From: Vicinamibacterales bacterium
GTDB lineage: Bacteria > Acidobacteriota > Vicinamibacteria > Vicinamibacterales > UBA2999
NCBI GenBank assembly: GCA_041394685.1
Contig: JAWKHU010000038.1
Span: forward strand, 130,087 to 194,086
Direction of reading: 5' to 3'
DNA length: 64,000 bases
Shown: positions 5,607 through 56,216 of the stretch, piece by piece
How positions within the stretch are numbered: the stretch's first letter is position 1
Layout of the letters: each line of letters begins with the position of its first letter
The notes under the pieces: generated by a model
Told to the model about the DNA's origin: nothing
Database searches by the model: none
What the model saw: the letters and a program-made list of their open reading frames with translations, nothing else
Translations under genes and position numbers: made by a program

Positions 5607-7457
5607 CTACCGCACGGCCGTTCCGGCGCCCTGCTGCAGGGTCGTATAGGCGCCTTCGCGCAGCCCCGTCCAACGCTCCGTCTCACCCGACGGCCACCGC
5701 ACCCGCACCTCGCGCACACCCGACGATTCCAGGCCCGCGAGCACGCGCGGGTCGTGCGCGGACAGGTAGCCGCCATCCGTGTGCACGCGACGCCGCAGGG
5801 CGCGCCCGTCCGAGCGCACGACGATGACCTCCGCTCCGAGCATGTCGCGGGCGGGCGTCCGTCCGGCCAGCCGCAGGCCCACCCAGCGGGACTGGCCTGG
5901 GGTGTCGTTGCGCAGCACCCGCGCCGGGCCGTTGCTGTTGAGCAGCACGATGTCGGTGTCGCCGTCGTTGTCGAGGTCGCCGAGCGCCATGCCGCGGCTC
6001 ACCTCCGCCACGCGGAACGCCGGGCCGGCCTCAGCGGACGCGTCACGAAAGCGGCCGCCCGTGTGGATGAAGAGCTGAGTGGGCTGCGCGAGCGGATAGG
6101 GATCGCGCGGGTCGGTGGTGAGGCGCAGCACGGCGCCGTTGGCGGCCACCAGGTCGAGCCACCCGTCGTTGTTCACATCGGCCCACAATGTCCCGAAGCC
6201 GGTGTAGCGCGTGCCGAGCCCAAGCCCGGCCTCCCGCGTCCGATCCTCGAACACCGTCTTGCCGAGGTTCACGTACAGCGTGTTGGTCTCGTCCATCAGG
6301 TGCGTGAGGAAGATGTCGGGCCGGCCGTCGCCATTGAAATCCCCGGAGTCCACGCCCATGCCGGCTTCCGCCTGCCCGTCCCGGTTGAGGGCCGTGCCGC
6401 TCAGCAGTGCCGCGTTCTCGAACGTGCCGTCGTGACGGTTCATCCAGAGCTGGTTCTCGTAGCCGTCGTTGGCCACGTAGAGGTCCAGCCAGCCATCGCC
6501 GTCGAAGTCGTCGGCCACCACGCCGAGGCCGGCGCCGAACGCGCGCGCGATGCCGGCCGACGCCGTGACGTCCTGAAAGGTCCCATCACCCTTGTTGCGA
6601 TAGAGGATGTCGGGCACCGGCGGAAAGGACTTCGGGCCGCAGTAGTCGCGGGCGCTCGTGGCGGCGTAGCAGGCAGGCGGTCGCGCGAGATCCACCTCGA
6701 CATAGTTGGTGACGAACAGGTCGAGCCAGCCGTCGCGGTCGTAGTCCACGAACGACGCGCTCGTGCCCCAGCGCCGATCGCCCGTCCCCGAACGCGCGGT
6801 GGCGTCCTCGAAGCGGCCGCCGCCACGGTTCATCCACAACTGGTTGGCGCCAAGGTTGGTGATGGCAGGTCCACGCGGCCGTCGTTGTCCACGTCGCCGG
6901 CGGCCACTCCCATCCCGTAGCCACGCGCCTCGATCCCGCTCGCCGCGGTCACGTCAGTGAAGGTCAGGCGGGCCGACCCAGGCGCGAGGTCGTTGCGGTA
7001 GAGCCGTCCGGACGGCGGCTGCGCGCCGGTCCACGGCGTCAGCGTCTTCGCCGCATCGTCGGACGGCCGCAAGGTCGTGCCCTGCACGAGGAAGAGATCG
7101 AGATCGCCGTCGTTGTCGAAGTCGAACAGCGCGGCGCCGGAGCCGACTATCTCGGGATAGAGGTAGTCGCCGGTGAGGCCGTTGTAGTGACGGAAACGGA
7201 TGCCGGCCGCAGAGGTGATGTCGGTAAAGGTGGCGGGGGCCGCAGATGGCGCAGATGACACAGAGGCCGCAGATTGCGCGGAACTCGCAGAAGCCGCAGA
7301 TGGCGCAGATGACGCAGAGGCCGCAGATTGCGCGGATGACACAGGGGACGCAGATGGCGCAGATGGCGCGAATGAGGCGAAGGGGTGGAGGGTGCGAGGG
7401 GGCCACGCCCGAAACGGCGAGCACGAGGGCGACGATTGGGAGGGGAGGGCGGTGCAT
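5607..7457 (-). CDS. CRTAC1-family FG-GAP/VCBS repeat protein with ASPIC/UnbV C-terminal domain (frame breaks near 6850 and near 7385-7420)
   Basis: Repeats include FDFDNDGDLDLF, GDVDNDGRVDL, VDYDRDGWLDLFVTNY, DDFDGDGWLDLYVANDG, GDFNGDGRPDIF and GDLDNDGDTDIV. The C-terminus is ...GAEVIVV..GGYLSAHDPRV..VRVRWPSG. The gene is split over ORFs 5607..6839 and 6830..7342. The signal peptide MHRPPLPIVALVLAVSG (ATG at 7457) is in a third frame. Confidence 0.75.
7242..7385. repeat. Tandem 9-mer array, 16 units (GCAGATGGC/GCAGATGAC/GCAGAGGCC family) with a 54-bp higher-order period
   Basis: Read directly: gcagatggc gcagatgac acagaggcc gcagattgc gcggaactc gcagaagcc, repeated, then decaying (gcgaatgag gcgaagggg). 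On the minus strand it translates as a Ser/Ala linker between the signal peptide and the mature CRTAC1 domain. Confidence 0.9.
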
Positions 7458-7497
7458 CGTGAGGCGGGACGCGTGCCGGGTGGTCCGGCGCGTCGCG

Positions 7498-16746: not shown

Positions 16747-16761
16747 GGGGGAGTTTAGTCT

Positions 16762-16844
16762 GGGGCGTGGGGCGGGGGCGTGGGGCGTGGGGCGTGGGAC
16801 CTGGGGCTTGGGGCTTGGGGCTTGGGGCTTGGGGCCTGGGACTT
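16762..16844 (+). repeat. Tandem G-rich 7-mer array (GGGGCGT then GGGGCTT), 12 G-tracts
   Basis: Read directly: GGGGCGT GGGGC GGGGGCGT GGGGCGT GGGGCGT GGGACCT GGGGCTT x4 GGGGCCT GGGACTT. It lies in the 161-bp divergent spacer between the dehydrogenase start (16746, minus) and the propeller-gene start (16908, plus). Confidence 0.9.
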
Positions 16845-16907: not shown

Positions 16908-19889
16908 ATGTCTTGCCTTCTCCGGCGCCTGGCCGGCATCGTCTGGATGCTGGCGCTCGTTCCCCACCCGGCCCTCGCGCAGTACGCCGAGACCGCGCGA
17001 ACGCTGCCGGTCGCCGACGGGCTCGTGTACACCGGCACCCAGATCGGGTCGCGCCTCTTCATCGGCGGGACGTTCACGCACGTCGCGCCGCCAACCGGCG
17101 GCGCCGCGGTGTTCGACGACGCCGATCAGCCCGTTCCGGGTAACTGGCCCGTCATCGGCGGCACCATCTCGCGCATCATCCCGGACACACTCGGCGGGTG
17201 GGTGGCCGTGGGTTCGTTCACCACGGTGAACGGGCAGCCGCACGCGGGGCTCGTGCACGTGACGGGCGCCGGCGAGGTGGACCCGCGGTTCCGCATCGTG
17301 GCCGATGGAGGCATCTCGTCCGTGGCGCTGGCGCACGGACGCCTCTACCTTGCCGGGCCCTTCACCACCGTGAACGGCGCTCCGCGCCGCGGCCTGGCCG
17401 CGCTCGACGCCTCGTCGGGTGCGCTGTTGGCGTGGGGACAGGCCTTCCAGGCCTTCGACATCAGCTTCGTCGCCGCGCTGGTGACCTCGTCCACCGGCGT
17501 CTACGTGAGCCTGACGGGTGCGCCGGGCGGCGGAACCTGGGGGCTCGCGGCCAGTGACGGCCACGTGCTCTTCCACCTGCCCATCATCTACGGGGCCCTT
17601 GCGCCCACCTCGACGCGTCTCTACGCCGCCGGCTACGTCCCCGCCGTGCAGCAGAATCGCGTCGTCGTCCTCGATCCGCAGACGGGCGCCGTCGATCCCT
17701 CGTGGGTGTCGCCCGTCCGGTTCCAGACCATCAGTACTACCAGCGGCGACCGCACGTTCTTCTCCCGCATGATCCTCGACGGCGACACGCTCTACGTGGC
17801 GGGGGCGTTTCGGACCGCCGGGGCGAGCCGGCAACACCTGATGGCGCTGAGCGCGTCGAGCGGCGCGCTGCTGCCCTGGCAGCCGGACGCCGCGTTCAAT
17901 CCGAGCAACGGGGTGCGCGACATCGTCCTGCTGCCGTCGCAGGTCATCGCCGTACACGAGAGCATCGGGTTCCCGGGACCGCTGCACGACGTCACGACAT
18001 TCGATCGGGTGAGCGCCGCCGCGACCCCTCGGCTCCTGCCCGTCTTCGGCAACGTCGCCACCGTCGCCCCGGTGGCCGCCGGAGTCGTGGTCGGCGGCAG
18101 CTTCGGCGGGTTCGGCGGAGAGGCGCGCGCCCAGCTCGCGGCCATCGACCTGGACACCGGCCTGCTCGACGCGTGGGCCCAACCGGCCGGCTCGCCGGCC
18201 AGCGTGATCGTGCTCGCCACGGATGGCGCCGCGCTCTTCGCGTGCCGCGTCCGGGACGTGGGCGGCCTGCCGCAGCCGACGATCGACAAGCTCGATGCCG
18301 ACGACGGCCACGTCGTGGCATCGCTCGACCTCGGTGGGCCGCTGGCGACGGCGCTGCTGCAGATGCGGGCCGCGGGCGGCCGCCTCTACGTCTGGGGGCT
18401 CTTCGACAGCCTGGGCGGACAGAGCCGCACCGGGCTGGCGGCCATCGACATCGCGACGTGGACGGTCCTGCCCTGGGCGCCCGCCACGGACAACCGGGTC
18501 TTCGATCTCGACGTGGTGGGCAACACCGTCTACCTGGCAGGCCACTTCTCCACCATCGACGCCACGCCGCGGCCGGGCCTGGCCGCGATCGACGCAACGA
18601 CCGGCGCGCTCCTGCCGTGGAACCCCGACGCCGACACGGCGCGGTTCTCCGGCGTTCGCGTCCGTGCCGGCCGTGTCCTCGTGAGCGGGGACTTCCGCCG
18701 AATCTCGGCCGTGCGCCGACGAGGGTTTGCCGCGCTGGACCCGGTGACGGCGGACGCCGACGCGTGGAATCCCGACTCGCCACCAGGATTCCCACAGGGG
18801 ATCAACGGCTTCGCGCTGGATGCCGCAGGCATCCTCTACGCGATGGGCGGGTTCTCCACGATCGTCGGCGGTCAACCCTCGGTCGGGCTCTTCGCCCTGT
18901 CGTCCGAGACCGGCCTCCGGCTGCCATGGCAGCCGCCCGGTCCCCTCTCGCTGAGCCGCGCGTCGGCGCTCCCGAGCTGTCTGCTTCTCGTCAGCGTCTC
19001 CCGGGTCGAGACGCCAATCCTGAACAGCTACGCCTGCCTGCCACCGCTGCCGCCGCCCACGAACGTATCCGCCAGCCTCTCGGGCGCGACGGCAACGCTG
19101 TCGTGGACGCCACCAGCGGCGGATGTGACCGGGTACCGCATCGAGGTCGGGCGCGGCGCCGGGCAGCGCGACCTGGCCACCGTGGCCGTGGATGCGGGCA
19201 CGACATCCGCATCGGGCTCCCTGCCGGCCGGTTCGTACGTCGCACGCATCCGCGCGGTGCACGGCGAGGTCGCCAGCATGCCCTCACCCGACGTGAGCTT
19301 CGCGGTCGCGCCGCCGGATGTACCGGGCATCCCGCTGGATCTCTCCGTGGCCACCGAGGGTCAGCGCGTGCGGTTCTCGTGGCGCCCGCCGACGGTCGGC
19401 ACGCCCGCCGGGTACCTCCTGGAAGTCGGCGTGGCTCCGGGCCGCGCGGACTTCGCGTCGCTCACGCTCCCGCCGACGTCCACGTTCGAGGTGCCCACCG
19501 CACCAACCGGCATCTACTGGGCGCGTCTCCGCGCGATCAACGCAGCCGGCGCCAGCGGGCCGTCGAACGAAGTCGTGATCAACGTCGACGGCAGCGCCGC
19601 GCCCTGCTCGCTACCCCCACTCGCACCCGCCGGCCTGGCGGCCAGTGTCACCGCGCGCGTCGTCACCCTCACCTGGATACCGGCCACGACGGGCGCCGTC
19701 TCCAACGCGCAGCGCATCGTTGTCGGGTCGGCCTCGGGACTGGACAATCTCGGCGTGTTCGAAGTGGCGGGTCCGGCCACGACGTTCAGCGCACCGGCGC
19801 CGCCGGGCACGCACTTCGTTCGCGTCTACGGGTTCAACGCGTGCGGCGCAAGCCCGTTCAGCAACGAAGTGCAGGTGGTCGTCCCGTGA
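16908..19889 (+). CDS. Secreted beta-propeller repeat protein (DUF5122/delta-60-like repeats) with three C-terminal FN3 domains
   Basis: Intact ORF with likely start MSCLLRRLAGIVWMLALVPHPALAQ after a TGGAGG RBS. About 12 repeats of the pattern G.V.ALA..G.LY.GG.F..V.G..R.GLAA.D..TGALL.W. Three FN3 modules have the W..P...Y..EVG...G and G.Y.ARIRA.N..G.S.PS..V signatures. Confidence 0.8.
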   Translation: MSCLLRRLAGIVWMLALVPHPALAQYAETARTLPVADGLVYTGTQIGSRLFIGGTFTHVAPPTGGAAVFDDADQPVPGNWPVIGGTISRIIPDTLGGWVAVGSFTTVNGQPHAGLVHVTGAGEVDPRFRIVADGGISSVALAHGRLYLAGPFTTVNGAPRRGLAALDASSGALLAWGQAFQAFDISFVAALVTSSTGVYVSLTGAPGGGTWGLAASDGHVLFHLPIIYGALAPTSTRLYAAGYVPAVQQNRVVVLDPQTGAVDPSWVSPVRFQTISTTSGDRTFFSRMILDGDTLYVAGAFRTAGASRQHLMALSASSGALLPWQPDAAFNPSNGVRDIVLLPSQVIAVHESIGFPGPLHDVTTFDRVSAAATPRLLPVFGNVATVAPVAAGVVVGGSFGGFGGEARAQLAAIDLDTGLLDAWAQPAGSPASVIVLATDGAALFACRVRDVGGLPQPTIDKLDADDGHVVASLDLGGPLATALLQMRAAGGRLYVWGLFDSLGGQSRTGLAAIDIATWTVLPWAPATDNRVFDLDVVGNTVYLAGHFSTIDATPRPGLAAIDATTGALLPWNPDADTARFSGVRVRAGRVLVSGDFRRISAVRRRGFAALDPVTADADAWNPDSPPGFPQGINGFALDAAGILYAMGGFSTIVGGQPSVGLFALSSETGLRLPWQPPGPLSLSRASALPSCLLLVSVSRVETPILNSYACLPPLPPPTNVSASLSGATATLSWTPPAADVTGYRIEVGRGAGQRDLATVAVDAGTTSASGSLPAGSYVARIRAVHGEVASMPSPDVSFAVAPPDVPGIPLDLSVATEGQRVRFSWRPPTVGTPAGYLLEVGVAPGRADFASLTLPPTSTFEVPTAPTGIYWARLRAINAAGASGPSNEVVINVDGSAAPCSLPPLAPAGLAASVTARVVTLTWIPATTGAVSNAQRIVVGSASGLDNLGVFEVAGPATTFSAPAPPGTHFVRVYGFNACGASPFSNEVQVVVP

Positions 19890-20020
19890 CACGAAGGGCA
19901 CGAAGGGGAGAACACGAAGGGGGGCACGGAGGACACGAAGAGCACGAAGGGGACGAAGGGCACGGAGGGCACGGAGAGCACAGGGGGCGCGGAGGGCGCG
20001 GAGGGCTCGAGGGGATCGAG
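19890..20020 (+). repeat. Tandem purine-rich 9-mer array (CACGAAGGG family), about 14 units, decaying 3'-ward
   Basis: It starts on the nucleotide after the TGA stop (19887..19889): cacgaaggg cacgaaggg ... cacggagga cacgaagag cacgaaggg gacgaaggg cacggaggg cacggagag cacaggggg cgcggaggg cgcggaggg ctcgagggg atcgagcgt. Confidence 0.9.
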
Positions 20021-34698: not shown

Positions 34699-36624
34699 TC
34701 AGAAGACGTCCACGCGCATGTCGGCCGTCGCCGGACCGATGCCCGCCACGTTCATCGCCCGCACGCGCACGTAGTAGGTGCCCGGAGGCGCGTTGGCGGC
34801 CACCAGCGACTCCTGCGGCGTCATCATCGTGCCCACGTCCGTGAGACCGATCTGCGATCCCACCTCGACGATGTAGTTGTCAACGGGACCGCCGGCCGAT
34901 GGTGCCTGCCACGCAAGCGTGACGGTGCGGCCCGTCAGCAGGTGTGTGAGGCCGTCGGGCGCGCCCGGCGGGGCCACGCTGGTGGACAGGGTGACGGCGA
35001 CGTCGTTGGAGGGCGCACCGGTACCGCAGGCGTTGAGCCCGCGCACGCGCAGGTAATAGGTCCCCGGAGGGCCCGTCGCCACCAGCGCCGGCAGGCCACC
35101 GATGTTGCGGCGGCCGTGCTCGACGCCGCCCGGCGTGGCTCCCACTTCGAGCAGGTAGGCAGTGGCTCCAGGCGCGGCGCCCAGTGCGAGCGACATCTGC
35201 AGGCCGTCCACCGTGGCCGCCAGCGGTCCGGGCGCCTGCGGCTCCGACATGCACCCGGTAGCGCCCAGCGTCACCAGCAGCTCGCTCGATGGCGGGCCGA
35301 GCCCGTATGCGTTTCGTCCCCGCACGCGCACGTAGTAGGTGCCGGCCGGCGCGTCGGCGTCGAAGGTGGTCGCCGCTCCCGCCGTGGCCTGGACCAGCAG
35401 GTTGCTTGCTCCAGCCACCGACCCCGCCTCGATGATGTAGTCGGCCGGAAGGCCGCCGGTGGTCGGCGGCAGCCACGACAGCCGCACGCGGAACGTCGTT
35501 GCGGTTGGCGAGTCGCCCATGCGGGCGATGCGCCCCTGCGCAGGCTGGAGCTGGTCGAACCCGAACGTGCGAATCGCGAAGCCCCAGGCCGCGTCTGCAC
35601 CAGGCGCGGTCACCGCCGCATCGCCTTGCTGACCCGCGACGGCATAGGACAACAGGAGGGGCGCACCGGGCACGCGCGAGAAGGTGGGTGACGGCGTCGG
35701 CGTAGGTATTGGAGTCGCCGACGGCGTCGGCGTCGGTACGGGAGTCGCCGACGGCGTCGGTGTCGGCACCGGGCTGGCCGATGGCGTCGGTGTCGGCACC
35801 GGACTCGCCGATGGCGTCGGCGTCGGCACCGGACTCGCCGATGGCGTCGGCGTCGGCACCGGACTCGCCGATGGCGTGGGGGTCGGCACCGGACTCGCGG
35901 AGGGCGTCGGTGTAGGCACCGGGCTCGCTGACGGCGTCGGCGTCGGCGTGACGTCGAAGTGATTGAACACGAGCGCGGGGCCCGCCTGCCCACCGTTCTC
36001 GCGGGAGGCCAGGAACATGCCGCCGTCGCCGCTGGTGGTCGTCCGGCGGATCCGGAACGTCGTGGCGCCGCCGTTGACCAGGGCGGTGACGTCGAAGCTC
36101 AGCTCTCCCGGGCCGGTGTAGCCGCCCTCGGCGCCCGGGGGCGTCCCGGCCGCCGTGTTGTTGAAGGTCGCGTCTCCCTCCGTCTGCGTCGTCGAACACG
36201 CTTCGGCCGTGATTGTCTCGAACGTGGGCGTGAAGTCGATGACCACCTGCGTCACCAGCGTGACCTCGTCGGCCGGGCCGTAGGTGGACAGCAGGGTCGA
36301 GACGGCGGTGGGGTCGAAGATCACCAGCGCATCGGCGCTGTCGGCGCCCTGCACCTCCACCGTCAGCTGCCCGTCGGTGCCGAAGTTGGTATCGGGCTGG
36401 TCCGACCGCAGCGTGGTGTCGCCGGCCACGTCGATCTGCCGCAGGACGGCGTGCGCGGCCGTCACGCCGAAGAGCGGCCCCAGGGCCGCACCGCCGACGA
36501 TGCGACTGAGGTAGCTGACGCCGCCAGAGGCGGTGAAGCCGGTGCCGCCGACGAGCCGCTGCACGAAGCCGCGACGGGACAGCGGATAGCGAGGCCGGGG
36601 ATCGCCGGGGCCGGATGTCTCCAT
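34699..36624 (-). CDS. Tat-exported DNRLRE-domain protein with Pro/Thr/Ser decapeptide linker and three FN3 domains
   Basis: Intact 641 aa. Twin-arginine motif is [17 protein letters not shown]-like motif is [21 protein letters not shown]. There are nine [10 protein letters not shown] repeats. Three FN3 modules carry [13 protein letters not shown] signatures. Confidence 0.8.
35683..35949 (-). repeat. In-frame 30-bp tandem repeat x9 encoding (TPTPSA[ST]P[VI]P)n linker
   Basis: Read directly. Several units differ only by synonymous changes (gcgagt versus gccagc for Ala-Ser) while the peptide stays identical. Confidence 0.9.
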
Positions 36625-36951: not shown

Positions 36952-37312
36952 ATGGATTTCAGCAAGCTGGACGGGCTCATCCCCGCCGTCGTGCAGGACC
37001 GCACGAGCGGCGAGGTGTTGATGGTGGGTTTCATGAACGACGAGGCCTGGGCGATCACGCAGCGCACCGGGTACGTCACCTTCTTCAGCCGCACGCGCAA
37101 CACGCTCTGGACCAAGGGCGAGACCTCTGGCAACCGCCTGGCGGTAGCGGCAGATCTGGACCGACTGCGACGACGACACGGTGCTGGTGAAGGTGGACCG
37201 GGAAGGCGACGGAAACGTGTGCCACACCGGGCAGCGCTCGTGCTTCTACACGGAAGTGCCGCTGACCGGCGGCGGGCAGCCGGCGGCGGGCGCGGCGGGA
37301 GCAGCCCGATGA
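36952..37312 (+). CDS. hisI: Phosphoribosyl-AMP cyclohydrolase, monofunctional (one frame break near 37150)
   Basis: GGGAG RBS. The N-terminal part is [61 protein letters not shown]. In the next frame it continues [29 protein letters not shown]. The stop TGA overlaps the hisG ATG (ATGA). Confidence 0.8.
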
Positions 37313-38194
37313 AGCTGCGGCTCGGCATTCCCAAGGGCTCGCTCGAGCAGGCCACCGTCCAGCTCTTCCAGCGGGCGGGCTTCCAGGTGCTGGTCTCGTC
37401 GCGCTCCTACTTCCCCTCCATCGACGACCCCGAGATCGAGTGCATGCTGATCCGCGCGCAGGAGATGGCCCGCTACGTGGCCGACGGCATCCTCGACGCG
37501 GGCCTCACCGGCTTCGACTGGATTCGCGAGCACGAGATCGGCCACCCCGAGCAACCACCGCTGGTGCCGTCGCCGACCTCATCTACTCGAAACAGAGCTT
37601 CGGCAAGGTGCGCTGGGTGCTGGCCGCGCCGGAGGCTCCCCGTTCCAGACGGCAAAGGACTTCGAGGGCAAGCGCATCGCGACCGAGCTGGTGCGCGTGA
37701 CACGCGACTACTTCCAGCGCCACGGCGTGAACGTGGACGTCGAGTTCTCGTGGGGCGCCACCGAGGTCAAGCCGCCCGTGCTGGCCGACGCCATCGTCGA
37801 GGCCACCGAAACCGGGTCCACCCTGCGGGCCAACCGGCTCCGCATCCTGGACACGATCCTGGAGTCCAACACCCAGCTGATTGCCAACGACACAGCCATG
37901 GCCGACGACTGGAAGCGGACGAAGATCGAGAACCTCGCACTGCTGCTCAAGGCCGCGATAGAGGCACAGGGCCGCGTGGGGCTGATGCTCAACGTGCCGA
38001 AGGCGAGCCTCGACGAGGTGCTGGGCCTGCTGCCCGCCCTGCAGCGGCCCACGGTGAGCGCGCTCAGCGACCCCGAGTGGGTGGCCGTCAACACCATCCT
38101 GGAAGAGAAGACCGCGCGCGACCTGATCCCCAAGCTGAAGGCCGCCGGCGGACAAGGCATCGTGGAGTATCCGCTGACGAAGATCGTCATGTAG
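37309..38194 (+). CDS. hisG: ATP phosphoribosyltransferase, long form (two single-base frame breaks near 37540 and 37640)
   Basis: The protein is [20 protein letters not shown]...[15 protein letters not shown], then [22 protein letters not shown], then [25 protein letters not shown]...GLMLNVPK...EYPLTKIVM. The length of 886 nt equals 888 minus 2. Confidence 0.8.
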
Positions 38195-38250
38195 GAATTC
38201 AGAAGTCAGAATTCAGAATTCAGAAGTCAGAACGGAGAAGGCGGAGCACA
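38195..38250 (+). repeat. Tandem 7-mer array filling the hisG-hisD spacer (GAATTCA/GAAGTCA family, 8 units)
   Basis: GAATTCA GAAGTCA GAATTCA GAATTCA GAAGTCA GAACGGA GAAGGCG GAGCACA, running from the base after the hisG TAG to the A of the hisD ATG. The decayed 3' units supply the hisD RBS (GGAGAAGG). Confidence 0.9.
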
Positions 38251-39551
38251 TGATCCGGGTCGTTCCTTCCACCAATCGCAGGGCCGTGACGGCGCTGCTG
38301 TCCTCCACGCGGGTGCGCGACCGTGTCACCGACCGCAAGGCGGCCGCGATCGTCGAGCGCGTGCGCGCGGGCGGAGACCAGGCGTTGCGTGCCTGCGTGC
38401 GGGAGTTCGACGGCGTGTCCGGACCGCTGGAGATTCCGCGGGCACGCTGGGCGGAGGAGGCCGCGTCGGTTCCCGACGCCGTGCGTGAGGCCATTCGCAC
38501 GGCCGCCCGCCACATCCACCGGGTGGCCCGCGCGCAGGTGCCGCGCGGGTGGCGCGTGCGCGTCGAGCGCGGCGTCACCGTGGAGCAGCGCGTGGTGCCG
38601 CTGTCGCGCGTGGGCTGCTATGTCCCGGCCGGCCGGTATCCGCTGCCGTCGTCGCTGCTGATGACGGCGCTGCCCGCCAGGGCGGCCGGTGTGCCCGAGG
38701 TGATCGTGGCGTGCCCGCGGCCGGACGCCACCGTGTTCGCCGCGGCCATCGAAGCCGGCGTGGACCGCGTCTTTCGGATGGGCGGCGCCCACGCGATTGC
38801 GGCCCTGGCCTACGGCACGCGGAGCGTGCCGCGGGTGGACAAGATCGTGGGGCCGGGCAATCGCTGGGTCTCGGCGGCCAAGTCGCTCGTCACCGCGGAC
38901 TGCGCCATCGACTTCTATGCGGGCCCGACCGAGATCCTCGTGCTCGCGTCGAAGACCCCGCCGGCGTGGGTGGCAGCCGATCTCATTGCCCAGGCCGAGC
39001 ACGATCCGGACGCCCGGGCCGTGTGCGTCACCACGAGCCAGGCGTACGCCAACCGGATCGCGGCCGAAGTGGCCGCCCAGCTCCCCGCCACCGGGCCCGC
39101 GGCCACCTCGCTGGCGCGCCACGGCGGCATCATCGTCGCGCGCTCCCAGCGGGAGGCCGTGGATCTCGCCAACCAGGCGGCTTCCGAGCACCTGGTCGTG
39201 GAGAGCGACGCCGTCGCGGAGCAGATCGTGAACGCGGGCGCGATATTCGTGGGGAGCTGGACCGCCCAGGTGGCGGGCGACTACGCCATCGGCTCGAACC
39301 ACGTGCTGCCGACGGCCGGCGCGGGACGCTACCGCGGCGGGCTGAACGCCGCGGACTTCGTGAAGCTGATCTCCGTGCAGCGCGCCACGGAGCGGGGCCT
39401 GCGGGCCATTGCCGGCGCCGTGACGACGCTGGCGCGAGCCGAGGGCCTGGAGGGACACGCTCGGTCCATCGACGTGCGCATGGGGACCGGCACGCCGCCA
39501 CGAGCCGCACGCGGGGCGCGCGCGACAGCAGGGACGGAGACGACGCGATGA
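38250..39551 (+). CDS. hisD: Histidinol dehydrogenase
   Basis: Intact 433 aa with motifs [27 protein letters not shown] and EGLEGHARS. Confidence 0.9.
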
Positions 39552-40625
39552 CGAGGATACAGGGAGTGCCCGACCTGGGACCTGGGCTCAGGCTGCACCT
39601 GAACGAGAACACCGGCGGCTGTTCGCCGCGCGTGGTGGAGGCCGTCCGCGGATTCACCGCGGAGCGCCTGGCGCTGTGCCCGGACTTCACCGACGCCGTC
39701 ATGGAAACGGCCGCCTTCCTCGGGGTGGACGCCGACCGCCTGGTGCTCACCAACGGGTTGGACGAGGGCATCCTGCTCGCGTCGATCGCCTACACGGTGC
39801 CGCGCGCGCCGGAAGCACTCGTCGAGCTCGGCGCCCCGCTCGTGGTGCTGTCGGGTGTGCCGGAGGTCGTCGTGGCGCTGCCGACCTTCGAGCCGTACTG
39901 CACGCAGCCAGGGGCATGGGGGCGCGCGTCGTCTCGGTGCCCGCCGCGCCCGACTACGCGTTTCCACTCGAGGGCATGCTGCGGGCCATCACGCCGAACA
40001 CGCGGCTCGTCTACGTGAACTCTCCGAACAACCCCACCGGCCAGGTGGTCCCCGCCGACGCCATTCGCGCGGTGGCGGCCGCGGCCGGCCACGCTCTGGT
40101 GTTCGTGGACGAGGCGTAGCCCACGACTTCGCCGGCGAGAACTTCCTCGCCGAGGCGGCCGCGTTCCCCAACGTGCTGATCGGACGGACGTTCTCGAAGG
40201 CGTTCGGCCTGGCGGGCATGCGCGTCGGGGTGATGGCGGCGTCGCCGGCCGTGCTGGAGCCCATCCGGCGCGTCATGCCGCTCTTCAACCTGAACGTGGT
40301 CGCCGTGGCGGCGCTGCGGGCGGCGTTGGCCGATCCCGACTACCGGGCGTGGTATCTCGAGCAGGCCGCGGCGTCGAAGGCCCTCGTCTACGAGACGTGC
40401 GAGCGCCTCGGTCTTCGCTGCTGGCCGAGCGCGGCCAACTTCGTCCTGATCGATGGCGGCGACCGGGCAAGAGCGCTCGTCGCCGGCCTGATCGCGCGCG
40501 GCGTGTTCGTTCGCGACCGCACCGCCGATCCCTCGTGCCCGAACTGCTTCCGGCTGACGGCCGGCGTGGTCGAGCACACCCGGCGTGCCGTGGAGGCACT
40601 GGAGGCCGTATGCGCCGCGGCGTGA
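39548..40625 (+). CDS. hisC: Histidinol-phosphate aminotransferase (two single-base frame breaks near 39900 and 40115)
   Basis: ATGA overlap with hisD. Pieces are [25 protein letters not shown], and in a third frame [15 protein letters not shown] (the PLP-Lys motif). The length of 1078 nt equals 1080 minus 2. Confidence 0.8.
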
Positions 40626-41197
40626 CCGACCGCCGCACGGCGGAAACCCAGATTCGTGTCTCTATCTCGCTGGACGGGACGGGACGCTTCGACAACCGCA
40701 CGGGCATCCGCTTCCTGGACCACATGCTGGATCTCGTGGCACGGCACGGCGGTTTCGACCTGTCGGTGCGGGCGACCGGGGACCTGGACGTGGACCAGCA
40801 CCACACCGTCGAGGACGCGGGGATTGCCCTGGGCGAGGCGGTCTCGAAGGCGCTGGGCACGCGGCGCGGCATCAACCGGGCCGGCTACTTCGTCATGCCG
40901 ATGGACGAAACGCTGGCCGTGGCCGCCATCGACCTGAGCGGCCGGCCGCACACCGTCGTGGACACGCGCGTACGGGTCCGCCTGGTTGGGGACCTGCAGA
41001 CGGAGCTGGTGTACGACTTCTTCGAGGGCTTCGCGATGGGCGCGCGTGCCAACGTGCACCTGAAGGTGCTGTATGGCCGCTCGAACCATCACAAGATCGA
41101 GGCCTGCTTCAAGGCCTTCGGCCGCGCACTGCGCGTGGCCTGCGCGAAGGACAAGCGGCTGGCGAAGATGCTGCCCAGCACGAAAGGGCTGCTGTGA
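40610..41197 (+). CDS. hisB: Imidazoleglycerol-phosphate dehydratase
   Basis: Intact 195 aa: [49 protein letters not shown] and [16 protein letters not shown]. Confidence 0.9.
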
Positions 41198-41829
41198 TTG
41201 CACTGGTCGACTACGGCGCCGGCAACCTTACCTCGGTGCGCAAGGCGCTCGGCGCCATCGGTGCGTCGTTCTGGACGCCCGCGGCGCCGTCGGAGATTGC
41301 CGATGCGGCAGCGGTGGTCGTACCCGGGGTCGGGCACTTCAGCGCCACAGCGGCGCTGGACGAACCGTGGCGCGACGCGATTCGACGCGCACTTGCCGGC
41401 GGACGCCCGCTGCTCGGCATCTGCGTCGGCCTGCAGTGGCTGTTCGACGGCTCCACCGAGGCGCCAGACGTCCCCGGTCTTGGCGTGGTCGCGGGCACGT
41501 GCCGCCACCTGGGCGACCGGGACCCGGACGCGCGGACGGATGCCGGCGCCGACGGACTGAAGATTCCGCACGTCGGCTGGAACGACCTCACGTTCCCTCG
41601 CCCCACGCGCCTGTTCGACGGCCTCGCCGATGGCACGCAGGTGTACTTCACGCACTCGTTCGCGGCGCCCGTGGTGGCCGCGACCGCGGCCGTCACCACT
41701 TACGGCGTCGCGTTCAGCGCCGCCGTCGAGGACGGCCTGGTGTCCGGCGTGCAGTTCCACCCCGAGAAGTCCGGCGACGCGGGGCTTCGCATCCTGCGCA
41801 ACTGGGCCGCTGATACGGGCCGCAGATGA
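41194..41829 (+). CDS. hisH: Imidazole glycerol phosphate synthase, glutamine amidotransferase subunit
   Basis: The GTG start overlaps the hisB stop (GTGA). Motifs are [33 protein letters not shown] and VQFHPEKSG. The stop TGA (41827..41829) lies inside the first repeat unit. Confidence 0.85.
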
Positions 41830-42149
41830 CGCAGATAGCGCAGATGGCGCAGGGGCCGCAGATGACGCAGATGGCGCAGGGGCCGCAGATGGCGCAGATG
41901 ACGCAGAGGAGGCAGAGGAGGCAGAGGCGGCAGAGGCGGCAGAGGAACCTCGGGAGGGGACTCGAGGCGGCCAGGACCTCTCTGTCGGCTCCACATGCAT
42001 TGATGACGATGACGCCTACGCCCTCACCCTCTGGTCTTGATCCGTGGCATCCGTGGCATTCGCGCCCTCTGCGCTATCTGCGTCATCTGCGGCCTCCGCG
42101 CCCTCTGCGGCCTCTGTGCCATCTGCGGCCTCTGCGCCATCTGCGGCTC
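41822..42149. repeat. Inverted-arm tandem 9-mer element filling the hisH-hisF spacer (14 units, ~92-nt core, 12 inverted units)
   Basis: The left arm at 41822..41947 is GCAGATGAC GCAGATAGC GCAGATGGC GCAGGGGCC ... GCAGAGGCG GCAGAGGAA. The right arm at 42042..42149 is CCGTGGCAT CCGTGGCAT TCGCGCCCT CTGCGCTAT CTGCGTCAT CTGCGGCCT ... CTGCGCCAT CTGCGGCTC, the reverse-complement family. It is the same family as 7242..7385. Confidence 0.9.
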
Positions 42150-42163
42150 CAGGGATCGCGCTG

Positions 42164-42928
42164 ATGCTGTCCAAGCGCATCATTGCCTGTCTCGACGTCC
42201 GCGACGGTCTCGTCGTCAAGGGCATCAACTTCGAGGGGCTCCGCGAGGCGGGCGATCCGGCTGCCCTCGCGCGACGCTACAACGTCGAGGGCATCGACGA
42301 GATCGTGATCCTCGACGTGACGGCCACCATCGAGGCCCGCCAGGCGCGGGCGCACACCATTGCGGCCGTCGCTGGGGAGATCTTCCTGCCGCTCTGTGTC
42401 GGCGGCGGCATCCGCACCGAAGACGACGCCGCGGCGGCGGTCGAGGCGGGGGCCGACAAGGTGAGCCTCAATACTGCGGCGCTGCAGAACCCGGCGCTGA
42501 TCACGACGCTGGCGCGGCGCTACGGCAGCCAGGCGGTCATCGTCGCCGTGGACGCCAAGCGCCAGGACGGCCGGTTTGCCGTCTACGCGCGGAGCGGACA
42601 GGCCGAGACGCCGAAGGACGCCGTGGACTGGGCGCGGGAGGCGACCGATCGCGGCGCCGGAGAGATTCTGCTGACCTCGATCGACAAGGACGGTACGCGC
42701 AGCGGGTTCGACTGCGAGATGACGGCGGCGGTGTCGTCGGCGGTCAACATCCCGGTCATCGCCTCCGGCGGCGCCGGCAGCTTCGCGCACTTCGCCGAGG
42801 TGTTCACCGACGGCCGCGCGGACGCGGCGCTGGCGGCGTCCATCTTCCACTTCAACGAGCACAGCGTCGAGGCACTGAAGCAGTTCCTCCACGCGCGCCA
42901 CATCCCCGTACGGTTGCCCCCATGCTGA
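42164..42928 (+). CDS. hisF: Imidazole glycerol phosphate synthase, cyclase subunit
   Basis: MLSKRIIACLDVRDGLVVKGINFEGLREAGDP..., motifs GGGIRT and ASGGAG. The ORF-track start at 42044 is read-through of the repeat. Confidence 0.9.
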   Translation: MLSKRIIACLDVRDGLVVKGINFEGLREAGDPAALARRYNVEGIDEIVILDVTATIEARQARAHTIAAVAGEIFLPLCVGGGIRTEDDAAAAVEAGADKVSLNTAALQNPALITTLARRYGSQAVIVAVDAKRQDGRFAVYARSGQAETPKDAVDWAREATDRGAGEILLTSIDKDGTRSGFDCEMTAAVSSAVNIPVIASGGAGSFAHFAEVFTDGRADAALAASIFHFNEHSVEALKQFLHARHIPVRLPPC

Positions 42929-43644
42929 TTCCGTCCATCGACCTCCAGAACGGCCGCGTCGTGCAGCTCGTGCAGGGCGAGACGCTGGCCATTGCGAGCG
43001 ATGACATCGATGCCTGGATCGCGAAGTTCTCGCGCTTCCCGAAGGTGCAGCTCATCGATCTCGACGCCGCGATGTCCCGCGGCAACAACGATGCACTCGT
43101 GCGGCGGATCGCGGCCGTCCTGCCCTGCCGCGTCGGCGGCGGCGTGCGCACGGTGGGCCGCGCCGAGGAACTGCTGGCGGCGGGCGCGCAGGCGGTCATT
43201 GCCGGGTCGGGCCTCTTCCGCGGACCGGGCCAGTGGGGCGATGCGTCCGGCGGGGCGCCGCCGCCTGCCGCGGTGGTCAACCACGAGTTCGCCGAGGCGC
43301 TCGCCACCACCGTGGGTGCCGATCGCGTGATCGCCGCGGTGGACGCGCGCGGCGGCCGCGTGGTCATTCATGGGTGGAAGACGGCGCTTCCATTGAGCCC
43401 GGTGGACGCGGTGCAGCTACTGGACCGCCACTGCGGCGAGTTCCTCTACACGCACGTGGACAAGGAAGGGCTGATGCAGGGCACCGACATGGACGCCATC
43501 CGCGCGGTGCGCGACGCGACGAGCCGCCGCGTCACCGCGGCCGGGGGCATCACCACGCAGGAGGAAATCGCCGCCCTCGACGCCCTCGGCGTCGACGCGG
43601 TCGTCGGGATGGCGATCTATACGGGCACATTGGCGGTCGATTGA
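42922..43644 (+). CDS. hisA: HisA-type ProFAR isomerase (HisA/HisF family TIM barrel)
   Basis: The start overlaps the hisF end. Sequence is MLIPSIDLQNGRVVQLVQGE, then LIDLDAA, GGGVRT, YTHVDKEGLMQG and AAGGITT. 240 aa. Confidence 0.8.
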   Translation: MLIPSIDLQNGRVVQLVQGETLAIASDDIDAWIAKFSRFPKVQLIDLDAAMSRGNNDALVRRIAAVLPCRVGGGVRTVGRAEELLAAGAQAVIAGSGLFRGPGQWGDASGGAPPPAAVVNHEFAEALATTVGADRVIAAVDARGGRVVIHGWKTALPLSPVDAVQLLDRHCGEFLYTHVDKEGLMQGTDMDAIRAVRDATSRRVTAAGGITTQEEIAALDALGVDAVVGMAIYTGTLAVD

Positions 43645-43646
43645 CT

Positions 43647-43681
43647 TTCTTAATTCTGAATTCTGAATTCTGAATTCAGAA
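43647..43681. repeat. Tandem 7-mer array, inverse orientation (TTCTGAA family, 5 units) ending in a 14-bp perfect palindrome
   Basis: TTCTTAA TTCTGAA TTCTGAA TTCTGAA TTCAGAA, starting 2 nt after the hisA TGA. The palindrome TTCTGAATTCAGAA is at 43668..43681. It lies between convergent genes. Confidence 0.9.
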
Positions 43682-55610: not shown

Positions 55611-56115
55611 TCAGCAGAGCGATACGCGCCACGTGGGCGCGATGTCCATCAGGGTGCGGTCCGACCTCGAGATCGAGATGCGCCGCACGTTTGCCTTCCC
55701 CCGCCGCCTCGTCTTCGAGGCGCACAGCAAGCCGGAGTACATCAGTCGCTGGTGGGGACCGCGCGGCAGCGAACTCATCAGCTGCGACATGGACTTTCGC
55801 CCGGGCGGCGCGTGGCGCTTCGTGGTCGGGAAGCCCGGCGGGCAGCAGTACGCGTTCCGCGGCGAGTACAAGGAAGTCGTCCCGCCCGAGCGCCTCGTCT
55901 ACACCTTCGAGTTCGAGGGCATGCCCGGATCGATCACCGTGGACGCGATCACCTTCACCGAGCACGAGGGGCACACCACGCTCACCTGCGTCAGCCGGAT
56001 GGACTCGATCGAAGCCCGCGACGCCATGCTGGCCTCCGGCATGGAGAAAGGCGCGGCCGAAACCTACGACCGGCTGGAGGAAATGCTCGGGGGGATCTCG
56101 GGGAATTCAGAATGA
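55594..56115 (+). CDS. SRPBCC / Aha1-domain protein
   Basis: It overlaps the arsR-like gene by 17 nt. Sequence pieces are FAFPRRLVFEAHSKPEYISRWWGP, GGAWRFV and YKEVVPPERLVYTFEFEG. Confidence 0.8.
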   Translation: MNASASQQSDTRHVGAMSIRVRSDLEIEMRRTFAFPRRLVFEAHSKPEYISRWWGPRGSELISCDMDFRPGGAWRFVVGKPGGQQYAFRGEYKEVVPPERLVYTFEFEGMPGSITVDAITFTEHEGHTTLTCVSRMDSIEARDAMLASGMEKGAAETYDRLEEMLGGISGNSE

Positions 56116-56216
56116 AGAAGTCAGAATTCAGAAGGGCCGTTGGCCGACCTCGGCTTTGTGCCTTTTGCCTTCTGCCTTCTTGATTTCGGCATTCTGCATT
56201 CTGAATTCTGAATTCC
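56103..56216. repeat. Inverted-arm tandem 7-mer element (GAATTCA/GAAGTCA family)
   Basis: The left arm is GAATTCA GAATGAA GAAGTCA GAATTCA GAAGG (56103..56135) and contains the SRPBCC stop codon. After a ~25-nt core comes the right arm CCTTTTG CCTTCTG CCTTCTT GATTTCG GCATTCT GCATTCT GAATTCT GAATTCC (56161..56216). The outer ends GGGAATTC...GAATTCCC are complementary. Confidence 0.9.

Follow-up and report, generated by a model that had tools for sequence, protein, structure and literature searches.

How does a stretch of more than 300 nucleotides of repetitive DNA come to lie between two genes of a biosynthetic operon in which neighbouring reading frames otherwise overlap? The question is raised by the histidine operon in a 64,000-nt stretch of the genome of a Vicinamibacterales bacterium (Acidobacteriota; GenBank assembly GCA_041394685.1, contig JAWKHU010000038.1, positions 130,087 to 194,086 of the forward strand), the whole of which is referred to here as the window. 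From hisD to hisA consecutive genes overlap by 4–7 nt with the sole exception of hisH and hisF, which are separated by a non-coding gap of 334 nt, extending from the hisH stop codon (TGA, 41827–41829) to the hisF start codon (ATG, 42164) and filled by two inverted arms of tandem 9-mers around a unique core (the his element). Among the members seen of a lineage-wide class of tandem-repeat hairpins, the his element is the most extreme; as a single locus it is not a new mechanism. Little is known about the class itself, the polarity of its arms and its placement from stop to start codon. We consider the spacer to be a non-coding, lineage-specific palindromic repeat of this class, here called tandem-repeat-armed hairpins, that came about through tolerated colonisation at the DNA level and slippage, a reading held with about even confidence.

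Anatomy of the hisH-hisF spacer

The left arm (41822–41947, + strand) is purine-rich and consists of 14 in-phase tandem 9-mers, as delineated by Tandem Repeats Finder (TRF; scores 105–131) and by parsing into units, which follow each other in the order GCAGATGAC, GCAGATAGC, GCAGATGGC, GCAGGGGCC, a 27-nt higher-order duplicate, GCAGAGGAG twice, GCAGAGGCG twice and GCAGAGGAA. The hisH stop codon lies inside the first of these units (GCAGA-TGA-C). The core (41948–42039, + strand) is 92 nt long, unique in the copy searches and predicted by folding to be a loop region with small local hairpins. The right arm (42040–42150, + strand) is pyrimidine-rich and contains about 12 inverse 9-mers, arranged as ATCCGTGGC twice ... 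ATCTGCGTC ATCTGCGGC ... CATCTGCGGC TCC according to TRF, unit parsing and comparison with an independent contig (L201). The architecture of 14 9-mers, a 92-nt core and 12 inverse 9-mers filling the junction, with the hisH stop codon inside the first unit, had been proposed in an earlier, sequence-only reading of the locus and is confirmed by TRF and unit parsing; the bounds of the right arm, there placed at 42042–42149, had to be extended. The same reading held that the other his genes overlap or abut, which is true from hisD to hisA, where the overlaps are ATGA (hisD/hisC), GTGA (hisB/hisH) and ATGCTGA (hisF/hisA), but not for hisG and hisD, which are separated by a 55-nt spacer made of a 7-mer array.

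How are the two arms related to each other? They are complementary to 75–82% across many registers and share a perfect inverted block of 27 nt (41818–41844 with 42068–42094), which contains the only ATAGC variants of the element. This block is outermost in the left arm but lies six units inward from the outer end of the right arm. Since the block is shared but offset by six units, the arms are copies of one another that expanded separately: the left arm reproduces a part of the right arm in inverted orientation, and each arm was lengthened on its own through tandem duplications that involved one to three units. Within the arms, periods of a higher order (27 and 18 nt), together with the runs of identical units (GCAGAGGAG and GCAGAGGCG, each in two consecutive copies), are the traces expected of slippage or unequal exchange.

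Empty sites and related arrays

In 66 related Vicinamibacterales loci the distance between hisH and hisF is mostly −11 to +30 nt. Several relatives with an empty site read AAC TGG .. GAT GCT xTC TAA across the hisF ATG, so that hisH ends 11 nt inside hisF, and the closest relatives for which DNA is available, L202 and L203 (90% HisF identity) and L204 (88%), have no array; a further relative at 90% HisF identity (P0007) has a hisH-hisF gap of 136 nt. Empty sites are thus the rule, which bears out the suggestion that the spacer is an insert relative to related genomes, and the ancestral state is a hisH that overlaps or abuts hisF. The hisH gene of L203 lacks about 200 nt in its middle (L203:980–1010), which may be a real deletion or an assembly collapse. 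Three loci (L028, L041 and L042) come from metagenome-assembled genomes (MAGs) that bear the titles Cyanobacteriota, 'uncultured cyanobacterium' and Bifidobacteriaceae; their his operons show 74–80% HisF identity to the window, and these MAGs are probably mislabelled or mis-binned.

The same 9-mer family occurs at the hisH-hisF junction of L004, L016 and L020, where it forms a single arm of the pyrimidine type only, and the 3' boundary of the right arm, CATCTGCGGCyCyrGrG, is common to the arrays of L016 and L020 and in part to that of L004. A junction at which the genes formerly overlapped or abutted is thus interrupted by an array, and the right arm of this array, rich in pyrimidines, is common to some relatives. 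At the same junction unrelated families are found in other loci, CCTTCGTG in L205 and L061, CTTCTAA in L030 and TCCCTGA in L034, and full hairpins are present in L011 (ACACTGAAG) and L050 (ACGCGGAGG). As unrelated unit families occupy one and the same junction, hisH-hisF must have been colonised repeatedly. In L011 (2300–2500) hisH continues in frame without a stop codon through a 160-nt hairpin array (ACACTGAAG / CTTCAGTGT) into hisF, which may constitute a HisH-HisF fusion with a repeat-encoded linker.

Is the his element a singular case? A census of 70 Vicinamibacterales sequences (1.34 Mb), with 11 outgroup loci for comparison and coding regions called by a log-odds gene caller, found 23.5 arrays (period 5–12, at least 3 copies) per 100 kb as compared to 5.2 in the outgroup. 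More than half of the arrays with periods of 6–10 (157 of 279) lie in the approximately 15% of the DNA that is non-coding, and many of them begin 0–7 nt from a stop codon or extend to immediately in front of a start codon. Among intergenic arrays a period of 7 is most frequent (83 arrays), followed by 9 (33) and 8 (30), which indicates that the arrays are not tied to codons. About a third of the intergenic arrays (53) have a reverse-complement partner within 500 nt, as opposed to 1 in a reversed-sequence control. Other copies with inverted arms, the existence of which had been left for a wider search to decide, do exist: 40 inverted pairs were found in the 1.3 Mb of related genomes, with loops of mostly 0–65 nt, the his element being the largest.

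The unit sequences are very diverse and match between genomes at about the rate estimated for unrelated sequences. Within a genome, different spacers share a family in 19% of pairs as compared to 4.4% between genomes (odds ratio 5.1, P = 7.5e-8). Concerted change is also seen, as every unit of the L006 array differs by the same T/G from the orthologous array in L009. The hisF-hisA spacers of L006, L009, L007, L020 and L032 are all 39–41 nt long, though the periods of their arrays differ (7 versus 9). Moreover, the arms follow a polarity rule. Hairpins have a purine-rich left arm in about 17 cases and a pyrimidine-rich left arm in 4; single arms within 12 nt after a stop codon are purine-rich in 21 cases versus 3, and those within 30 nt before a start codon are pyrimidine-rich in 12 cases versus 4. 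Being strand-symmetric, this rule is a solid property of the class but, taken alone, does not tell RNA from DNA as the level of action. It may be caused by selection against purine units that resemble ATG, GTG or Shine-Dalgarno (SD) sequences just upstream of real start codons.

At least five further arrays of this kind are found within the window. One of them (7241–7369, + strand, TRF), located 34 kb away from the his element, belongs to the GCAGATGRC family and has a single arm, a higher-order period of 54 nt and a 28-nt exact stretch in common with the left arm of the his element. It lies in a minus-strand gene (~5607–7460) between a signal-peptide-like start (MHRPPLPIVALVLAVSGVAPS, in a different frame) and a CRTAC1/FG-GAP-like mature domain and reads as a Ser/Ala-rich linker in the mature frame; such arrays may therefore be translated. 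The hisG-hisD spacer is filled by an array of the 7-mers GAATTCA/GAAGTCA (38195–38239, + strand; TRF, sequence), of the same class but a different family, and an inverse array of the 7-mer TTCTGAA starts 2 nt past the hisA stop codon (43647–43681, + strand; TRF, sequence), so that oppositely oriented arrays of one 7-mer, 5.4 kb apart, bracket the hisD-hisA block. The same 7-mer family forms a hairpin (GAATTCAGAA.. / ..TTCTGAATTC) between co-directional genes at 56105–56215 (+ strand; sequence, TRF). Directly after the stop codon of the gene at 16908–19889 there are 14 copies of CACGAAGGG-type 9-mers (19890–20014, TRF), the inverse of which is the CCTTCGTG family that sits upstream of hisF in L205 and L061. 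Between divergent genes at 16761–16840 there are 11.6 copies of the G-rich 7-mers TGGGGCG/TTGGGGC, which could form G-quadruplexes, and a tandem repeat with a 30-nt period (35690–35947; 8.6 copies, 89% identity) lies inside the minus-strand gene 34699–36564.

The genes of the operon are all encoded on the + strand. The glutamine amidotransferase subunit HisH (41194–41829) was assigned by Pfam (GATase, 2.6e-15), its translation and its relatives, and the cyclase subunit HisF (42164–42928) by Pfam (His_biosynth, 2.3e-75), the protein being 100% identical to one in a Vicinamibacterales MAG at NCBI. Pfam and NCBIfam matches identify hisG (ending at 38194), hisD (38250–39551), hisC (39548–40625), hisB (ending at 41197) and hisA (42922–43644). 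Apparent frameshifts spread hisC over three frames, place the N- and C-terminal parts of hisG (37450–38194) in different frames and truncate the Pfam match of hisI (about 37020–37150). These frame breaks are either indel errors of the assembly or pseudogenes in an otherwise intact operon, and because of them the exact copy number of the array is less certain than its architecture.

RNA-level and DNA-level explanations

How could such an element have arisen at a junction of overlapping genes? From the end states, which are all that is directly seen, we infer the following steps of construction. The array may have been copied from another array of the genome, or a duplicated segment of the junction may have been amplified, either route possibly aided by microhomology, as the codons ...ATC CTG CGC AAC TGG... 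of hisH itself resemble the unit. Copying between loci is suggested by the unrelated families that occupy the same junction elsewhere and by the second array of the family in the window with its 28-nt shared stretch, both of which argue against a purely local origin. Duplication of the junction would have accompanied the copying, the array would then have grown by replication slippage, a second arm could have been added by strand-switch (fold-back) synthesis, and the element would persist mainly as a selfish or neutral sequence at the DNA level.

The flanks of the element bear on its arrival. The sequence-only reading had noticed an imperfect 9-nt direct repeat outside the arms and considered that it could be a target-site duplication. 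The repeats are indeed present, CGCTGATAC at 41808–41816 and CGCTGATGC at 42159–42167, 351 nt apart and matching in 8 of 9 positions. A target-site duplication is doubtful, since they lie 5–8 nt outside the arms instead of abutting them and are the best-matching part of a longer similarity of about 35 nt that links the 3' end of hisH to the junction on the right (local alignment score 10, shuffle P = 0.04). The left junction copy (41790–41821, + strand), identified by local alignment to 42138–42172, is the native 3' end of hisH, CATCCTGCGCAACTGGGCCGCTGATACGGGCC, and includes CGCTGATAC; the right copy (42138–42172, + strand), CATCTGCGGCTCCAGGGATCGCGCTGATGCTGTCC, is composed of the final 9-mer unit, a degenerate copy of the 3' end of hisH and the start of hisF and includes CGCTGATGC as well as the SD-like CAGGGA. 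In the alignment the left side reads CATCCTGC-GCAACTGGG--C-CGCTGATACGGGCC and the right side CAT-CTGCGGCTCCAGGGATCGCGCTGATGCTGTCC. An analogous comparison in L016, which concerns a repeat of the hisF start, yielded P = 0.0065, and a test for flank duplication in six hisF-hisA hairpins was not significant. In addition, the pyrimidine unit CATCTGCGS resembles the conserved ATC CTG CGC codons of hisH, and direct precedents for a tandem duplication of a gene junction are found at hisF-hisA in L025 and L008. Judged from these sequences, the flank similarity looks more like a gene-junction duplication or microhomology-guided copying than like the footprint of a transposase. In the two precedents (L025:10756–10850 and L008:10795–10900) the hisF-hisA spacer is a duplicated overlapping junction without a short-unit array, an illustration of how overlapping genes separate.

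Several points weigh against colonisation and slippage at the DNA level. A mechanism for copying between loci was not identified, and there is no transposase, RAYT or nuclease among the Pfam families listed for 37 genes of the window (25 of 52 matched). The arrays sit very exactly from stop to start codon and obey the purine-first rule, and some hisF-hisA arrays keep a spacer of 39–41 nt across genera, both of which hint at function. The flank similarity in the window is of marginal significance (P = 0.04), the comparison of G·U- with A·C-type mismatches described below is low in counts, with 39 informative mismatches, and the step of translational coupling, also considered below, draws solely on a predicted fold.

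Does the element act as RNA? The spacer is presumably transcribed, as judged from the operon context of co-directional genes. An RNA fold of 41800–42175 has a predicted free energy of −231.8 kcal/mol as compared to −174.3 ± 5.4 kcal/mol for shuffled sequences (z = −10.6), none of 100 shuffles being as good. When slightly more flank is folded the predicted stem comprises 106 pairs between the arms (70 G-C, 27 A-U and 9 G-U), so that the hairpin of more than 100 bp envisaged for the polycistronic mRNA is possible in silico. At the base of the predicted stem the last nine codons of hisH (41802–41828) pair with 42120–42152. The SD-like CAGGGA before hisF is predicted to be nearly always paired (probability of being unpaired 0.01–0.2 for 42149–42156), and the A and T of the hisF start codon are mostly unpaired in the predicted fold. 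In the colonisation account the insert would be tolerated within the operon because the stem of about 106 bp loops out the 334 nt in the transcript and places the hisH stop codon beside the hisF start codon. The fold would bury the ribosome-binding region of hisF against the last nine hisH codons, and ribosomes finishing hisH would open this region, so that coupling would survive the insertion. As a possible side effect the stem might act as a barrier for 3' exonucleases or as an RNase III site between hisDCBH and hisFA. On the strength of the modelled fold, an effect of the hairpin at the RNA level is plausible.

The best-surviving alternative, which we regard as possible though clearly not the leading explanation, is that such an effect is what the element is selected for, as an intercistronic hairpin that enforces coupling or as a REP/BIME- or RNase III-like element (repetitive extragenic palindrome/bacterial interspersed mosaic element) that sets different stabilities for hisDCBH and hisFA. 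The single pyrimidine-rich arrays before start codons would then serve as leaders or as stand-by sites, with the purine arm as their anti-sequence. The high stability predicted for the stem and the pairing predicted at its base between the final hisH codons and the ribosome-binding region of hisF speak for this explanation, as do the arrays that abut stop and start codons across the order, the polarity of the single arms (21:3 after stops, 12:4 before starts), the fact that hairpins usually fill the spacer, and the hisF-hisA arrays that persist across genera, several with a 39–41-nt spacer. Moreover, a role in regulating translation was suggested for start-proximal heptamers of Beggiatoaceae (PMC4679880) and of Nostoc (bioRxiv 10.1101/2022.06.06.494920). 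However, the junction element is not conserved, most relatives being without it, including those with 88–90% HisF identity. If the RNA structure were under selection, its traces would be sought in the mismatches of the arms and in the stability of the sense strand. Arm mismatches are G·U-compatible on the sense strand in 17 cases versus 22 of the A·C type (P = 0.52; 4 versus 4 in the his element alone), and minimum free energies of sense and antisense strands across hairpins reveal no consistent advantage of the sense strand (9 versus 10 cases). With neither an excess of G·U nor an energetic edge of the sense strand, selection for RNA structure is not demonstrated, and because both tests are negative the complementarity of the arms is explained by copying at the DNA level. 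The purine-first rule is strand-symmetric and does not require transcription, and the stem is not followed by a U-tract, so that it is no intrinsic terminator.

A second alternative is a non-autonomous mobile element, either similar to miniature inverted-repeat transposable elements (MITEs) or an emptied gene cassette, with the tandem 9-mers as terminal inverted repeats and a 9-bp duplication, CGCTGATRC, at the hisH/hisF overlap. The flanking repeat with 8 of 9 matches and the analogous repeat of the hisF start in L016 would fit, and so would families that are common to several loci of one genome. A metagenome scan for two consecutive GCAGATGRC units, for which the estimated chance expectation is of the order of 100, returned at least 120 contigs, most of them with 2–3 units and many probably due to chance or coding sequence. 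Inverse units lie downstream in 24 of these contigs (cores of 12–430 nt) and upstream in 4, an asymmetry that follows the polarity rule and would be in keeping with a mobile unit; of all the contigs returned, only the 24 are informative. Since the contigs were found by searching for the unit, the sharing of units among them cannot prove homology, and the presence of the same unit in unrelated contigs is in part a consequence of this search. In two of the metagenome contigs, L149 (3885–4360) and L088 (6900–7930), the same 9-mer arms bracket a GxxExxY (TIGR04256) gene, which would suit a cassette, but no such gene is present in any Vicinamibacterales locus examined. The core of the his element has no second copy in the window, in the 1.3 Mb of related loci or in the metagenome collection (exact 24-mer), and being unique it does not point to a MITE whose body is conserved. 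The direct repeat does not abut the arms and is part of the longer junction similarity, the hisF-hisA hairpins are without flanking duplications, inverted complementarity often runs past the 9-mers into lineage-specific flanks, and the Pfam families listed for the window genes do not include a transposase. Taken together, a mobile element of this kind appears unlikely. GxxExxY genes also occur near GCAGATGAC arrays in L104 and L117 (1–500), the latter with tandem partial cassettes, and many modules of about 39 nt (GATCCGCAGATGACGCAGATGACGCAGAGGGGGAAGGGC) surround the GxxExxY gene in L088.

An equally doubtful but farther-reaching proposal is that a self-propagating system of tandem arrays with a fixed purine-to-pyrimidine polarity builds intercistronic spacers in the Vicinamibacterales and possibly in Geobacter and others. 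The pyrimidine array would serve as leader of the downstream gene and the purine array after the stop codon would mask it, which would constitute a modular and evolvable device for coupling or mRNA processing that could be placed between any pair of genes, and the his element would be an over-expanded instance of it.

If the arrays were made up of sites that a DNA- or RNA-binding protein recognises, with the inverted arms as two opposed clusters, as was guessed for Geobacter with IHF or HU as ligand (PMC2700814), this would account for the fixed unit length with helical-repeat-like periods of 7–9 nt, for genome-specific families and for the intrinsic polarity of the arms. This is nonetheless a very improbable explanation, as units of different genomes match near the level of unrelated sequences and several families coexist in one 64-kb window, so that many different proteins would be needed; no candidate protein was found, and the Geobacter proposal is itself a guess.

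Could the spacer encode a protein? An open reading frame (ORF) of 112 codons (41826–42164, + strand) fills the gap exactly, with an ATGA overlap with the hisH stop codon and a TGATG overlap with the hisF start codon, and the 9-nt period keeps the frame, as would be expected of a repetitive protein of 112 amino acids that is translationally coupled between HisH and HisF. Its G+C content at third codon positions is 0.76, however, and its coding log-odds score −5.2, as compared to 0.86–0.91 and +23 to +68 for the neighbouring his genes, and it has no match in Pfam or NCBIfam. Intergenic arrays of the class mostly have periods of 7 or 8, and an open frame of 116 codons is expected by an estimate in about 1 of 10 cases in DNA of 71% G+C and more often in repeats. 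The ORF was therefore rejected as a gene, a coupled small protein being scarcely credible, and is judged a by-product of the 9-nt period in such G+C-rich DNA.

Other identities were considered in turn. No site resembling an intrinsic terminator is found in 41600–42400, the stem being followed by GGGATCGCGCTGATG and not by a U-tract, and a promoter scan gave no promoter-like site at the spacer. Rfam has no match in the window at gathering thresholds, the best match below threshold being a plant miRNA hairpin (26.5 bits versus a threshold of 137). CRISPR arrays consist of repeats of 24–48 nt with unique spacers of similar size, whereas the 9-mers are contiguous and without spacers. DnaA-box and iteron arrays were likewise rejected, and so was a G-quadruplex at the his element, the units of which are not G-runs. 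An assembly artefact, that is, repeats joined wrongly or expanded too far in a MAG from error-prone long reads, for which the apparent frameshifts in hisC, hisG and hisI as signs of indel errors would speak, can practically be dismissed, as the 9-nt phase is unbroken through 14 units, related arrays occupy the junction in four other independent assemblies (L004, L016, L020 and L205), and the independent short-read contig L201 of the Joint Genome Institute, with a near-identical HisF, starts inside the right arm (GCGCCATCTGCGGCTCCtGGGATCGCGCTGATG-hisF), breaking off there as short-read assemblies do at repeats, and has the same last units and junction with one single-nucleotide polymorphism.

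If the tandem-repeat-armed hairpins are selfish DNA, as in the colonisation account, the his element demonstrates that an essential biosynthetic operon can harbour more than 300 nt of inserted DNA without being broken, and it would be a clear case of repeat birth, inverted duplication and growth by slippage at a junction of known ancestral state. If the class is functional, it would represent a new and very simple wiring of the expression of neighbouring genes in the Acidobacteriota, a phylum with almost no molecular genetics. In practical terms, the arrays cause short-read assemblies to break off at gene junctions, L201 and L205 being examples, and give rise to spurious ORFs, and they would serve as strain-typing markers for uncultured soil Acidobacteria.

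Comparison with known systems

REP and BIME elements and REPINs, in which two inverted REPs form one hairpin, are known from enterobacteria and pseudomonads; they are extragenic, transcribed, hairpin-forming and often intercistronic, are present in many copies per genome and can stabilise the 3' ends of mRNAs. REPs have one conserved sequence of about 25–35 nt per genome, which is mobilised by a RAYT transposase. The resemblance to REP/BIME elements pointed out in the sequence-only reading holds for position and shape, as the his element is extragenic, lies between co-directional genes of an operon from which its transcription is deduced, and is predicted to form a stem of 106 pairs. Unlike REPs, it has no single conserved sequence: at least four unrelated unit families occur in the 64-kb window, the core is unique, and the arms consist of short tandem units extending up to 126 nt. 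A RAYT (Y1 transposase) is not among the Pfam families listed for 37 window genes (25 of 52 matched).

MITEs, such as Correia/NEMIS, RUP and ERIC, are small non-coding elements with inverted ends that lie between genes, are co-transcribed, fold into hairpins and are sometimes flanked by duplications. All copies of a MITE have a conserved body and defined termini, and the target duplication is fixed. The his element shares with them the terminal inverted repeats (75–82% complementary, with the perfect block of 27 nt) but differs in its core, which is unique in the window, the 1.3 Mb of relatives and the metagenome 24-mer search, so that the unit family alone is shared.

Short tandem units near genes were described in other lineages. 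The TAACTGA repeats of Beggiatoaceae are tandem heptamers, mostly intergenic and often only a few nt away from start codons, for which translational regulation was proposed (MacGregor, 2015; PMC4679880), and tandem heptamers of cyanobacteria (short tandemly repeated repetitive sequences, STRR) are found near start codons without an established function (bioRxiv 10.1101/2022.06.06.494920). Common to these and the Vicinamibacterales arrays are short tandem units, an intergenic and start-proximal location and lineage-specific abundance. The former are, however, direct repeats, the Beggiatoa genome having one indirect repeat among 170 sets (PMC4679880), whereas a third of the Vicinamibacterales class are inverted pairs with very diverse units, 8 and 9 are frequent periods, and the G+C content of the genomes is about 70%. 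The his element, with its 9-nt unit, inverted pair and many families, does not belong with these heptamers, to which the 7-mer arrays of the window correspond better.

The intervening sequences of 23S rRNA, such as that of Coxiella burnetii (PMC4990558), are stem-bounded inserts. As predicted for the his element, their stem joins the two ends of the insert, so that the host RNA tolerates it, and some carry a small ORF. They differ in lying in rRNA and being excised by RNase III, and their stems are not tandem arrays. The core of the his element contains neither an S23p nor a GxxExxY ORF, and since GxxExxY genes are absent from the Vicinamibacterales loci the link stays an analogy.

In Geobacter metallireducens, 'paired sites on opposite strands' with tandem units of GTTGCTYN, TCTCCGTS[Y] or MTYCTGA (classes 1–3) were annotated under the name 'paired global-regulator binding sites' (Aklujkar et al., 2009; PMC2700814), and binding of IHF or HU was guessed by the authors in the supplementary annotation. 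These sites belong to another phylum, have 3–5 units per arm as compared to 12–14 in the his element, and a polarity rule, an analysis of the junctions and the evolutionary dynamics are not reported there. They are nevertheless alike in being intergenic tandem units of 7, 8 or 9 nt, paired on opposite strands at variable distance, a description that applies to the his element as well. Moreover, the TTCTGAA/TCAGAAK arrays of the window are built from the same heptamer as class 3 (MTYCTGA), and units of the CACGGAG type in Vicinamibacterales relatives resemble that of class 2 (TCTCCGTS[Y]). The paired tandem-repeat sites of Geobacter are the closest published description of the class to which the his element belongs.

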